Assembly (NCBI RefSeq): GCF_016026235.1
Contig: NZ_CP065613.1
Origin: Escherichia coli
GTDB lineage: Bacteria; Pseudomonadota; Gammaproteobacteria; Enterobacterales; Enterobacteriaceae
Direction: 5' to 3' (one strand)
Length of the DNA: 64,000 bases
Below, piece after piece: positions 7,404 to 26,371 of the stretch. The translations under genes were made by a program, and so were the position numbers. The notes under the pieces are model-generated. The model had not been told where the DNA came from and made no database searches. It saw only the letters and a program-made list of their open reading frames with translations. Numbering within the stretch: the first letter of the stretch is position 1; each line of letters starts with the position of its first letter.

Positions 7404-7415
7404 CGCCCATCGGCG
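7404..7415. repeat. IS4 target-site duplication, left copy (cgcccatcggcg)
   Basis: 12-bp sequence identical to 8842..8853, directly abutting the IS4 terminal inverted repeats. Confidence 0.85.
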
Positions 7416-8841
7416 TAATGCCAGTCAGTTAAGCAACTGACTGGCTCTTTTTCGGGGCTGTGGGGTATTTCCAGGGCCTCTCCTTTACCACTCTCGGGAA
7501 GGCCCTTCCCCTTCTCGTCGGTAATTTCACAAGTTGTCCCATACTTGCAAGATCGCGCATCAGCTCCGGTATACGTCCCGGTGAAGCGCCCTGCAATGTC
7601 ATCAGCATTCTCATCACCATTCCGCATGATTCTGAGAAACTCAGTTGATTCGGCCAGTAACCTTTCAGATGTTCCGCCATTTTAATCATCTGATATCTCA
7701 CCAGATTATAAGCCAGTAAGACACCCCACAGCTCTTGCTCCACAAGCTCCGGCTTTTTACTTCTCAGCGTCAGCCTGCTCAGTTGCATCGTCTGTTTTAT
7801 CTCCCTGTATCCCAGTTCGATTTCCCAGCGATGACTGTACAGATCCGCCATTTCTCCTCTGGGGAAGCGCATGGCGTCCGTCATCGACGTCAGCAGATGG
7901 CAGACTTTTCCTTTGCGCGTCACGGTCAGCAGGCGGGCTGTCACTTCATTTCCCAGTCCCGGCCACTTTTTTCGTGCCTGCGGGCTGGTTTTCAGCTTCA
8001 CCAGATGATCGCCTTTACCCAGTTTTCTGAGCTCTTCATATTGCGCTCCCTTTCTGAGAGGTATCATCCAGTGGCGGTGTTCTCCCGCCAGGCTCCAGGC
8101 ATTTAACAGTCCCAGTGAGTAATAACCTTTATCCATTAACGTCAGAGTGTTATCGCCGGTTTGTTCTATAAGTTGCTCAGCAAGCTCATTTTCGCTGTTC
8201 TTCATCGTGCCGAAGGCTGCAGCCGTCAGCAGATGGCTGGTCAGTTCCATCTGGCAGACCATTTTGACCTGCGGGTAGAGCGCCGGGTTCCCGGCATGTG
8301 TCTGGCGGGGGAAGGCTGCATCGTTCTCTGGTGTATCCGGTGTGCGCCAGAACACACCATCGATGGCCAACAGGGTCAGGCCGCACCAGTGCGGATGCGG
8401 CGTGGCGTTATGCCAGAGCTGCGCTGTTTTCGTGAACACGCGGCGGACAGCCTCACTTCCCAGGCGCTGGCGGGCCTGAATAACGGCACTGGGGGCAACG
8501 AAGGGGCGATTGCCCGGCAGCATGATGTCCAGGCGATTCACAATCTGGTGAAGAGGTTCTTTACGCTCAAGCGCCATGCCAACAATACACCAGACCATCA
8601 TTTCGAGGGGAAGACGGCGCTTGCGTAGCGTTACAGTACCTGATTCGGCAAGGCAACGAGAGATGAGTTCGGGGTCGAGGTAATCCCCCAGAGAAGTCAG
8701 TGGGTTACGCAGAGAATCGTAACGGGATACCAGATCAAGAGCCTGTCCAATGTGCATAAAAAAATCCGGAAACAAGTGAGCGTTTCCGGATTCTTACACA
8801 GCCACTGGATCGGTCAACTGATCCTTAACTGATCGGCATTA
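7416..8841 (-). mobile_element. Insertion sequence IS4 (1426 bp)
   Basis: Element length 1426 bp; 18-bp imperfect terminal IRs taatgccagtcagttaag (7416-7433) and cttaactgatcggcatta (8824-8841); 12-bp flanking direct repeat; encodes 442-aa transposase. Confidence 0.93.
7429..8757 (-). CDS. insG: IS4 transposase InsG
   Basis: ORF 7429..8775; start taken at [26 protein letters not shown]... (442 aa), recognised as IS4 transposase. Confidence 0.92.
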
Positions 8842-8853
8842 CGCCCATCGGCG
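8842..8853. repeat. IS4 target-site duplication, right copy (cgcccatcggcg)
   Basis: Identical to 7404..7415; with the IS removed the flanks rejoin as aaaaatggcgcccatcggcgccattttttt, a palindromic bidirectional terminator. Confidence 0.85.
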
Positions 8854-8861
8854 CCATTTTT

Positions 8862-9713
8862 TTATGCTTCCGCCAGCGGCGGCAAAATCAATTCATCGCT
8901 CTCATGCTGCTGGGTGTAGCGCATCACTTCCAGTACGCGCAACCCCGCGCGGTGCACCGCATCGGTTAACGCCTTCCCTTTCAGCAAGCCACTGATGAGC
9001 TGAGCACAAAACTGGTCGCCAGTCCCTTTCAGGTCGGTTTTTACCCGTGAATGGGAAATGACATTCACGCTGTCGGCAGTGACCACCACAACCTGCATCT
9101 CCTGATTTTCTTCATTACCGGAGGCGCTGGTAATCACCACCCATTTTAGTGTGTCTGAAAGCAGACTTTTTGCGGCAGCAATGGCACTGTCGAGATCGCG
9201 GCAATTTTTACCGGTCAGGATTTCCAGCTCAAAGATATTGGGGGTAATTCCCTGCGCCAGCGGCAGTAAATATTGTCGATACGCCTCGGGAAGGTCAGGT
9301 TTGACATAAATTCCGCTATCAATATCGCCAATCACCGGATCGACCATGATCAATAGATCAGGATGGTCTTTGCGTAGCGCAGTCAGCCACTCGGCAAGGA
9401 TTTTGATTTGCGATGCCGTTCCCATATAGCCCGTGGTTACAGCACGAAGTTGGCGCAGCGCATCACGCTCCTGAAGCGCACGCAAATAGCCGCTAAACCA
9501 TTCGTCCGGAATCGCACCACCGTAGAAAGTGTCATAATGCGGCGTATTGCTCAGCAATACCGTCGGCACGGCAAAGACATTCAGGCCGTTCTGTTTGATA
9601 GCAGGCACGGCAATGCTGTTGCCTACGCTGCCGTACACTACCTGCGACTGCACGGCGACGATATCCGCCTGCAGTGCCCTGCTCTTATCGTTAAACAACA
9701 ACAAACTACTCAT
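8862..9713 (-). CDS. pdxK: Pyridoxal/pyridoxine/pyridoxamine kinase
   Basis: 283-aa [39 protein letters not shown]... Confidence 0.94.
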
Positions 9714-9751
9714 TTAATTTTTTCTCCTTGCCGATGATCCTCATCGTATTA

Positions 9752-10186
<435 letters not shown>

Positions 10187-10188
10187 TC

Positions 10189-11100
10189 TTAAATCCCCGC
10201 CCCCTGACTAAAATGCTCTTCCCCAAACACCCCGGTGGAAAGGTAGCGATCGCCACGATCGCAGATGATCGCTACCACCACCGCACCAGGGTTAGCTTTT
10301 GCCACCCGCAGTGCTCCGGCAACCGCGCCGCCGGAGCTGACGCCACAGAATATTCCTTCCCGCACCGCCAGTTCGCGCATGGTGTTTTCCGCATCGCGCT
10401 GATGAATATCCAGCACCTCATCCACCAGCGAAGCGTTGAAAATCCCCGGCAGATATTCCGTAGGCCAGCGGCGAATGCCGGGAATGCTGCTGCCCTCTTC
10501 CGGTTGCAGGCCGACAATGGTCACCGGTTTGGATTGTTCGCGCATAAAGCGTGACACGCCGGTGATAGTGCCGGTTGTTCCCATGCTGGAGACAAAATGG
10601 GTAATGCGCCCGCCAGTTTGCTGCCAGATTTCCGGCCCGGTAGTGGTGTAATGGGCGTAAGGGTTATCGGGATTATTGAACTGATCGAGCAGCTTTCCTT
10701 CACCACGATTCGCCATCTCCAGCGCCAGATCGCGCGCACCTTCCATGCCCTGCTCTTTGGTGACAAGAATCAGTTCCGCACCATAAGCACGCATCGCCGC
10801 ACGACGTTCCTGGCTCATGTTGTCGGGCATCAGCAATTTCATGCGATAGCCTTTAAGCGCGGCAATCATTGCCAGCGCAATGCCGGTGTTACCACTGGTG
10901 GCTTCGATTAACACATCACCCGGTTTAATTTCCCCGCGCTTTTCCGCCTCGACGATCATCGAAAGCGCCGCACGATCTTTTACCGAACCTGCCGGGTTAT
11001 TGCCTTCCAGTTTTAACCACACTTCACTGCCGTTATTCGGCCCCATTCGCTGCAACTTCACCAGAGGCGTATTGCCTATTGTTTGTTCTAATGTACTCAC
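10189..11100 (-). CDS. cysM: O-acetylserine sulfhydrylase B (cysteine synthase B)
   Basis: ORF 10189..11178; start taken at GTG 11098-11100 giving (M)STLEQTIGNTPLVKLQRMGP..., 303 aa. Confidence 0.94.
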   Translation of the reverse strand: MSTLEQTIGNTPLVKLQRMGPNNGSEVWLKLEGNNPAGSVKDRAALSMIVEAEKRGEIKPGDVLIEATSGNTGIALAMIAALKGYRMKLLMPDNMSQERRAAMRAYGAELILVTKEQGMEGARDLALEMANRGEGKLLDQFNNPDNPYAHYTTTGPEIWQQTGGRITHFVSSMGTTGTITGVSRFMREQSKPVTIVGLQPEEGSSIPGIRRWPTEYLPGIFNASLVDEVLDIHQRDAENTMRELAVREGIFCGVSSGGAVAGALRVAKANPGAVVVAIICDRGDRYLSTGVFGEEHFSQGAGI

Positions 11101-11123
11101 GATCTCTATCCATACGTGGTGTT

Positions 11124-11160
11124 GCCTGATGCGACGCTTGCGCGTCTTATCAGGTCTACA
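11124..11160. repeat. REP (palindromic unit) in cysM-cysA intergenic region
   Basis: gcctgatgcgacgcttgcgcgtcttatcaggtctaca, canonical REP consensus. Confidence 0.75.
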
Positions 11161-11233
11161 GGTTACAAACCTTGCCATTAAAAAGCCCGGATCGCGGGAA
11201 GCGCCTCCGGGCGTTTAACATTCACTCAACCTA

Positions 11234-12331
11234 TCAGGCGCTTTGTGCGAGAGCAAGTTCCTCATCGCGGGTTTCGATACGCTCGTCGCCGTTATACAGC
11301 CGCGCATGTTGCAGACCAACGAATAAACGCTCGCCACGCTGCGGGGCATCGTCGCCATGCATCACGACCGTCAGCGGTTCGTTGTACCACCCCAGCGGCT
11401 GCACCACTAATTGGGTGTAGTGACCTTTCGGGCTGGCTTCCAGTACCTGTACCGGCAGCGGCGAATCGAGACTGGTACGGCGGCTGATATCCACTTCCCA
11501 AGGGCGCAGAAAGAGATCCACCGGCCCCTGATACGCAGGTGTGTAGCCCAGCGGCCAGCGATGCGCGCCAACATGGAACTGCCCGCCGCGAATGGTTCCC
11601 TGCAGGCGGTTCACTTCGCCCATAAATTCGAGCACAAAACGGGTCGCCGGTTCGCGCCATACCTGATCCGGCGCGTCAGCCTGTTCAATATTGCCCTGGC
11701 TCATCACAACTACACGATCAGCTACTTCGGTCGCTTCTTCCTGATCGTGGGTCACAAAAACGCTGGTGAATTTTAGTTCTTCATGGAGTTGACGCAGCCA
11801 GCGACGCAGCTCTTTACGCACCTGCGCATCCAGCGCGCCAAACGGTTCATCAAGCAGCAGAATTTGCGGTTCTACAGCAAGCGCACGCGCCAGCGCTACA
11901 CGCTGTTTCTGGCCGCCGGAAAGCTGCGCCGGATAACGATCCGCCAGATGGGCAAGCTGGACCATTTCCAGCAATTTTGTCACTTTCGCTTTGATGGCTG
12001 CGGCATTCGGGCGCTCGCGACGCGGCAGCACCGTCAGGCCAAAAGCGATATTGTCGAACACCGTCATATGGCGGAACAGCGCGTAATGCTGGAACACGAA
12101 ACCGACTTTACGATCACGTGCGTGCAGGCGGCTCACGTCGGTGCCGTGGAAGCGAATATGCCCGCTGGTTTGATGCTCCAGCCCAGCGATAATGCGCAGC
12201 AGCGTGGTTTTCCCGGAACCGGACGGCCCCAGCAACGCGACCATCTGACCTGAAGGAATATCCAGTGAGATATCGTTCAGCACCTGGGTGCGACCAAACG
12301 ACTTCTTAATATTGGCAATCTCAATGCTCAT
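11234..12331 (-). CDS. cysA: Sulfate/thiosulfate ABC transporter ATP-binding protein
   Basis: 365-aa [46 protein letters not shown]... (Walker A, ABC signature LSGGQ). Confidence 0.96.
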
Positions 12332-24410: not shown

Positions 24411-25313
<903 letters not shown>

Positions 25314-25318
25314 CTCCC

Positions 25319-26371
25319 TCACCCCCATTCCCGCATCCGCTGATGCAACGTCAACGACGGCTTCTCGGCAAACAGCTGCTGGTAATCCGTGGCAAATTGC
25401 CCCAGATGCCAGAATCCCCACTGCATGGCGGCGTCTTTTACCGTTGTGCTTTGCGACCACGGGCTTATCAGTTCGCGGCGTACGGCGTTCAGGCGAATGC
25501 GTTTCAGCCACGCGTTTGGGCCAATGCCTAAAATAGCGTGAAACGCGTTTTGTAGCGTGCGGCGGCTGACATGCAGTTGATTACACAAATCCAGCACCGT
25601 CACCGGTTCGGACATGTTTTCCAGCACATATTCACGGGCGCGGGAAAGCAACCGACGGTAACTCTGATGACTGATGCTTTCCGCCGTCACCATTGGTTGC
25701 GCTTCTTCCAGCATCGCCCCCATCGCCATTAGCAAATTATCCCCCAGCACTTTTCGCACTGCAGGCTGATGAAGATTTTCCGGGTTCTCGCAAAACGTCG
25801 CCAGCGCCTGTTGGACAAAGCCCCACAGCGCGGCTTTATGCTGCTCTTTCACTTCCAGCGCCGACTGGCTACGCAACATATGTAATACCCGATCCGGATT
25901 ATGCAAAAAGTTAGCCTGACGGGTGATGACATCTTCAGAAAGCACTACGCCCAGGATCGTGTAATCGTCCGGCGTACTTAATTCAAACTCGGTTCCACCA
26001 GGGCGCGTCGCTATTTCTGCGCTTCCCAGACATTGCGAACCGATAAATCCCTGCTCACCGCGCGTCGCCGGAATGCCAAACCAGAACGAGTTCGGCCAGA
26101 CCAGACACGACTGACGCAGCGCCAGACCGGTGTATTCACGAAAAACCTGAATATCATCGAGTAGAATTTCCGTAAATTCACCATGAAACTTGCCCGGATG
26201 CAGCTGATCGTAAATCTGCTGCCAGGCGGTAATCGTTAAAGCATGTTCATAGACATCCGTTGTCTGTCGTTGATGAACATTATCCACTTCGACCTTCGGC
26301 GTGAGCTTCAGGTTTTCGGGTAAGGGTTCATGATAAAGATGGTGCAAATTGGCTGTACGGGTCTTTTTCAT
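25319..26371 (-). CDS. eutR: AraC-family transcriptional activator of the eut operon
   Basis: 350-aa [34 protein letters not shown]...; C-terminal AraC HTH. Confidence 0.95.

Follow-up and report, generated by a model that had tools for sequence, protein, structure and literature searches.

The genes yfeK and cysM lie tail to tail in the 64-kb stretch of Escherichia coli DNA analysed here (the window), and nothing is placed between the two reading frames except the dinucleotide that separates their stop codons (Table 1). The stop positions and the 2-bp distance given by an earlier sequence-only reading of this DNA are borne out by the ORF coordinates and the sequence. YfeK matches Pfam DUF5329 (PF17263; E=1.1e-31, 109 bits with a cut-off of 27) and NCBIfam NF007646 (PRK10318.1-3; 278 bits with a cut-off of 171), and its N-terminus carries a signal-peptide-like segment. 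PADLOC gave no match for YfeK or YfeS as defence proteins. In synteny with K-12, yfeK sits between pdxK and cysM and 3' of a sigma-E-type promoter motif, all 28 nt of which are identical in K-12. Sigma-E promoters are described to include that of yfeK (PMC3326320), and yfeK(S) of K-12 has been reported as an operon of the sigma-E regulon (PMC2685091, PMC11502571). Judged by its sequence, the motif probably works as a promoter in the window strain, too. The nucleotide identity between window and K-12 is 95.2% for yfeK, whose start codon is GTG in the window and ATG in K-12, and 97.5% for cysM. CysM is assigned to the PLP-dependent enzyme family (Pfam PALP, E=1e-74), and its gene is followed by the ORFs of cysA, cysW, cysU and cysP, all on the minus strand.

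Table 1 Features at and around the yfeK/cysM junction, in window coordinates
Feature	Position	Strand	Description	Basis
pdxK	8862-9713	-	Upstream neighbour, divergent from yfeK	ORF; synteny with K-12
Sigma-E-type promoter motif	9757-9784	+	GAAACTT-N16-TCAAA upstream of yfeK	Regex match
yfeK	9818-10186	+	122 aa, GTG start, protein ends PAQ	ORF; Pfam; NCBIfam; same PGAP call in FDAARGOS_943
Palindrome	10151-10184		ATTGCGCAG...CTGCGCAAT at the yfeK 3' end; hairpin possible in both transcripts	Folding
yfeK stop codon	10184-10186	+	TAA	ORF list
Spacer	10187-10188		TC between the convergent stop codons; yfeS slot in its "empty" state	Sequence; 50-nt junction comparison
C-rich, G-poor tract	10187-10460	+	RNA downstream of the yfeK stop, antisense to the end of cysM; putative loading region for Rho	Composition
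cysM stop codon	10189-10191	-	TTA on the plus strand (TAA on the minus strand)	ORF list
cysM	10189-11100	-	Cysteine synthase B, 303 aa, GTG start at 11100; last gene of cysPUWAM	ORF; PGAP, 912 nt

The window has no trace of yfeS. The search for a remnant that the sequence-only reading had proposed was run with K-12 YfeS as tblastn query over the whole 64 kb, and the best match had an E-value of 1.3. When the K-12 segment containing yfeS was used as blastn query against the window, only dispersed REP copies matched. An Rfam scan of positions 9400-11400 gave no match at the junction; its sole match, a sub-threshold one to the REP-derived naRNA4, falls between cysM and cysA (11123-11155).

A 2-bp gap between convergent genes is not unusual, and tight convergent tails are common in this part of the chromosome. 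Tight tail-to-tail ends are found in two of the six convergent pairs of a 50-kb stretch, namely hemF/eutR and yfeH/ypeB. In the window, the ends of the convergent ORFs of hemF (24414-25313, plus strand) and eutR (25319-26371, minus strand) are 5 bp apart, and in the neighbouring region of K-12 the overlap of yfeH and ypeB is 4 bp.

The window differs from K-12 at several other places. The crr/pdxK pair has the look of a classic bidirectional terminator (AAAAATGGCGCC-CATC-GGCGCCATTTTTTT), and in the window an IS4-family element of 1426 bp (7416-8841), which K-12 does not have, is located inside this palindrome, so that the hairpin is parted from both U-tracts. The element has imperfect 18-bp terminal inverted repeats, is flanked by a 12-bp target duplication (CGCCCATCGGCG at 7404-7415 and 8842-8853) and encodes a transposase on the minus strand (7429-8775; Pfam Nterm_IS4 and DDE_Tnp_1). 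The cryptic prophage CPZ-55 (6.8 kb), which splits eutB/eutA in K-12, is absent at ~29880-29902, and the eut operon is thus contiguous. Two K-12 intergenic segments of ~140-155 bp (cysP/ucpA and yfeW/yfeX), which are probably REP/BIME elements, are missing at ~15160 and ~20800.

Two states of the yfeK-cysM interval

Compared with the window, K-12 MG1655 has the same flanking genes in the same order and orientation (pdxK-yfeK-[yfeS]-cysM, b2418-b2421), but the alignment of the two intervals reveals 955 extra bases at the junction, consisting of yfeS and a REP/BIME (locus record L001, 7718-8672). The K-12 gene order yfeK-yfeS-cysM, as given in the sequence-only reading, is therefore correct, with yfeS (b2420) between the two other genes. 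The encoded YfeS has 244 aa and an N-terminal WGR domain. Due to the extra bases, the stop codons facing each other in K-12 are those of yfeS and cysM, 188 bp apart. The cassette also alters the end of YfeK, which reads PAEGN in K-12 and PAQ in the window. With 40.6%, the GC content of the cassette is low in comparison to the 53% of the window, and its REP/BIME part has matches at about 40 sites in each E. coli genome. In E. coli HYM1 (locus L010, 1502-2851), an IS1397-family, IS3-like element lies between yfeS and cysM, where K-12 has the REP/BIME.

In K-12 the cassette is limited by 8-bp direct repeats, ATTAATCC, at L001 7713-7720 and 8665-8672, and the same repeats are found at the exact cassette limits in BL21, HYM1 and Pseudocitrobacter. 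The repeat was rejected as statistically remarkable by itself, with 17 two-copy families of 8-15 nt occurring in the same 1.2 kb. It counts only because it lies at both boundaries and is conserved from allele to allele.

Among complete E. coli genomes the state seen in the window is the common one. With an 80-nt query that has the junction in its middle and also matches an O157:H7 genome with 100% identity, the junction was found uninterrupted in 4035 of 5426 genomes (74%). The cassette, counted as present when at least 80% of it was covered, occurs in 1381 of them (25%), a value that overstates its natural frequency because many of these genomes are laboratory derivatives of K-12 and BL21. 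Over 50 nt, the junction is identical to that of the window in the six yfeS-less strains that were read (FDAARGOS_943, F3398, LY180, Nissle 1917, A4 and P31_YH1), and in the RefSeq annotation (PGAP) all six have the 2-bp gap, too. While the junction is the same in yfeS-less strains, the surrounding 1-kb interval is otherwise ~95-98% identical to the window, except in FDAARGOS_943, which is 100% identical over this 1-kb stretch of yfeK/cysM. For the 5.2-kb interval, the top-ranked E. coli matches are 97.8-98.5% identical. The statement that yfeS is absent thus holds in comparison with K-12 but misleads as a framing, since most E. coli share the empty junction. It is better put that an extra cassette is present in K-12 and in about 25% of strains. 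The sequence-only reading had also supposed that its K-12 gene order would be wrong if K-12 and most E. coli had the 2-bp junction; most E. coli do have it, whereas K-12 does not.

Outside E. coli, species-representative genomes were scanned with a YfeK alignment. With few loci from Escherichia and none from Salmonella or E. fergusonii among the results, this outgroup sample is thin. In these genomes the convergent arrangement of yfeK and cysM is widespread among Enterobacteriaceae, and the space between the two genes is variable. Nothing lies between the genes in Pseudocitrobacter faecalis DSM 27453 and E. coli SCPM-O-B-8794 (stops 2 bp apart in both), in Enterobacteriaceae UBA5654 (1 bp), in Escherichia sp. 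E1V33, where yfeK and cysM overlap by 12 bp, and in Citrobacter amalonaticus and Superficieibacter sp. (31-32 bp). In Klebsiella spallanzanii and S. electus, 426-516 bp with a SnoaL-like gene separate the stops, in two Enterobacteriaceae genomes ~1.2 kb with a DUF218/SanA-like gene, and in E. albertii a segment of 1.8 kb with 34.5% GC. The insert of E. albertii NBRC 107761 (L017, 3831-5649) holds two small ORFs of 164 and 99 aa, which match no Pfam or NCBIfam family, and in this strain a clear hairpin-plus-T terminator follows directly 3' of the yfeK stop. In a Pseudocitrobacter MAG, yfeS occupies exactly the K-12 site and has the same ATTAATCC boundaries. For this genus the occupied state is represented by this one MAG contig and by a Pseudocitrobacter contig of 5.08 Mb that encodes a YfeK with the ending PAEGN. 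The PAEGN ending is also present in YfeK of the Enterobacteriaceae isolate G50, and in other genera, Klebsiella among them, a YfeK of 124 aa, the length of the occupied type, is common. The abutting of yfeK and cysM at 0-2 bp, or their overlap, is widespread in E. coli and close relatives.

Probable transcription across the junction

In agreement with the sequence-only reading, which had seen no room for a terminator at the junction, a scan of positions 9500-11400 found no canonical intrinsic terminator there. The hairpin at the yfeK 3' end (Table 1) has calculated energies of -14.0 kcal/mol on the plus strand (z -1.1 against shuffles) and -16.3 kcal/mol on the minus strand (z -1.7), and a U-tract follows on neither strand. 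The occupied allele of K-12 has a mismatch in the palindrome and does not adopt the window fold. As a structured element the palindrome was rejected, for it folds no better than shuffled sequences and is not conserved in E1V33 and UBA5654.

The RNA past the yfeK stop has a distinct composition. Its ratio of C to G is 1.93 in the first 78 nt, compared with a window-wide 95th percentile of 1.72, and stays at 1.25 or above when the counting frame starts anywhere across ~230 nt past the stop. Judged on composition only, this RNA is rut-like, i.e. untranslated, C-rich, G-poor and 3' of a stop codon. Rho acts on untranslated C-rich RNA, which makes Rho-dependent termination shortly into the antisense of cysM the most likely fate of the yfeK transcript, as far as composition and general knowledge can tell. 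Without the cassette, a transcript driven by sigma-E from yfeK would extend for a short distance into sequence antisense to the end of cysM, and either Rho or a collision with RNA polymerase arriving from cysPUWAM would stop this untranslated C-rich read-through RNA. Transcription of cysM would, in the same way, stop inside the antisense of yfeK. Collision-type bidirectional termination is the alternative to Rho, and under either mechanism some overlap of the yfeK and cysM 3' ends is likely.

Transcriptional interference between yfeK and cysM, as suggested by the sequence-only reading, is possible, and the sequence neither supports nor excludes it. Since the arrangement is found in most E. coli and in several related genera, interference, if there is any, seems to be tolerated. 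A stronger proposal would be that the tight junction is a regulatory device, in which read-through from yfeK, induced by sigma-E, lowers the expression of cysM, and of cysPUWAM with it, under envelope stress, putatively via polymerase collision or via cleavage by RNase III where the 3' ends overlap. Such a device would fit with the sigma-E motif kept upstream of yfeK, with a junction that has no intrinsic terminator and a palindrome able to fold in both transcripts, and with bidirectional termination by collision, as documented for convergent genes of E. coli (bioRxiv 10.1101/2022.10.23.513370). However, the hairpin does not exceed shuffled sequences (z -1.1 and -1.7) and is not conserved in E1V33 and UBA5654, the junctions of which are equally tight, and the C-rich tract predicts that Rho would terminate the transcript quickly. 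In addition, one quarter of E. coli insulate the pair by ~1 kb, with no known phenotype linked to cysM. We consider a regulatory role of the junction unlikely.

Origin of the two alleles

The nucleotide identity between K-12 and the Pseudocitrobacter MAG is 95.9% for yfeS but 80.7% for yfeK and 89.6% for cysM. A cassette that is much more similar between genera than its flanks, with their 81-90%, is the mobile part of the locus. Within E. coli, yfeK itself is unusually polymorphic, with nucleotide identities between strains as low as ~92% (window compared with loci L001-L017). Similarity of yfeK is independent of the presence of yfeS, as the yfeK of K-12, which has yfeS, is 98.6% identical to that of LY180, which does not, and the yfeK of HYM1 (with yfeS) is 97.8% identical to that of P31 (without). 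This polymorphism, together with a similarity that does not track yfeS, suggests frequent recombination at the locus and points to two alleles that would be shuffled by recombination through conserved flanks.

The competing view is that yfeS is ancestral and that most E. coli, including the lineage of the window, lost it by a deletion between the ATTAATCC repeats, with the 2-bp junction as the scar. Direct repeats of 8 bp at the exact limits of the cassette in K-12, BL21, HYM1 and Pseudocitrobacter are what such a deletion would use, a second genus has yfeS at the same site, and YfeK of 124 aa, the occupied-type length, is common in other genera. Loss by the repeats would, however, produce the sequence GCGGAAGGAAATTAATCCTTAAAT. 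This exact clean deletion of the K-12 cassette, searched as a synthetic query, is absent from all 5426 genomes, the best full-length match (93.3%) being the canonical empty allele. Instead, the empty sites all read GCGCAATAATCTTAAAT, as does that of P. faecalis with one change. The low GC content of the cassette (40.6%) and its identity between genera, far above that of the flanks, also argue against such a loss. A repeat-mediated deletion is already disfavoured and in our opinion quite improbable. That the missing yfeS is an artefact of assembly or sequencing, or a deletion private to this isolate, is practically ruled out by the same junction in 4035 independent complete genomes and in other genera.

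The high identity of the cassette between genera, the yfeK similarity that does not follow yfeS, the missing clean deletion and the low GC content together indicate that the cassette is mobile and that yfeS was not lost in the window strain. We are highly confident that the window represents the majority "empty" haplotype of a two-state polymorphism and that yfeS of K-12 is part of a horizontally moved cassette of ~955 bp. The polarity at deep nodes is less certain and not fully settled, given that the 124-aa form of YfeK is common outside E. coli, in Klebsiella and further genera.

The last 60 nt of yfeK in the window (10127-10186) are identical to those of P. faecalis DSM 27453 (L014, 3810-3869) despite an overall yfeK identity of 82.5%, and the empty allele may therefore have crossed genera as well. 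Constraint at the nucleotide level on the 3' half of yfeK was rejected as an explanation, since variable sites are evenly spread within Escherichia. Due to this even spread, the high identity of yfeK to Pseudocitrobacter is better read as exchange than as constraint.

Significance and comparison with known systems

The absence of yfeS from the window is ordinary accessory-gene variation that is already known and annotated, and it does not suggest an unknown system. For the yfeK-cysM interval K-12 is a minority type and not the reference state. In strain comparisons, yfeS should be treated as an accessory cassette and its absence should not be scored as a loss. The cargo seen in the slot comprises yfeS with the BIME, the DUF218/SanA-like gene, the SnoaL-like gene and the AT-rich 1.8-kb segment of E. 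albertii. One could speculate that the junction is a conserved slot whose small cargo is swapped between enterobacterial genera by recombination via the conserved gene ends and that its empty state couples envelope stress to sulfur assimilation through sigma-E-driven antisense transcription into cysM; we think that this combined scenario is doubtful. The two alleles nevertheless form a natural pair in which the same convergent genes either abut at 2 bp or are insulated by ~1 kb with REP/BIME, and this pair could serve to test how E. coli resolves unterminated convergent transcription.

Among known systems, the junction can be compared with overlapping bidirectional terminators. Bidirectional termination driven by collision at convergent E. 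coli genes has been documented by Wang et al. (bioRxiv 10.1101/2022.10.23.513370) and, as cited in that preprint, by Ju et al. 2019. To the extent that these terminators are described there, the yfeK/cysM pair resembles them in being convergent and without a canonical terminator, and in having, where the two genes meet, a palindrome able to form a stem-loop in either transcript. In contrast to them, the predicted yfeK/cysM stem-loop is statistically unremarkable and is not conserved in relatives with equally tight junctions.
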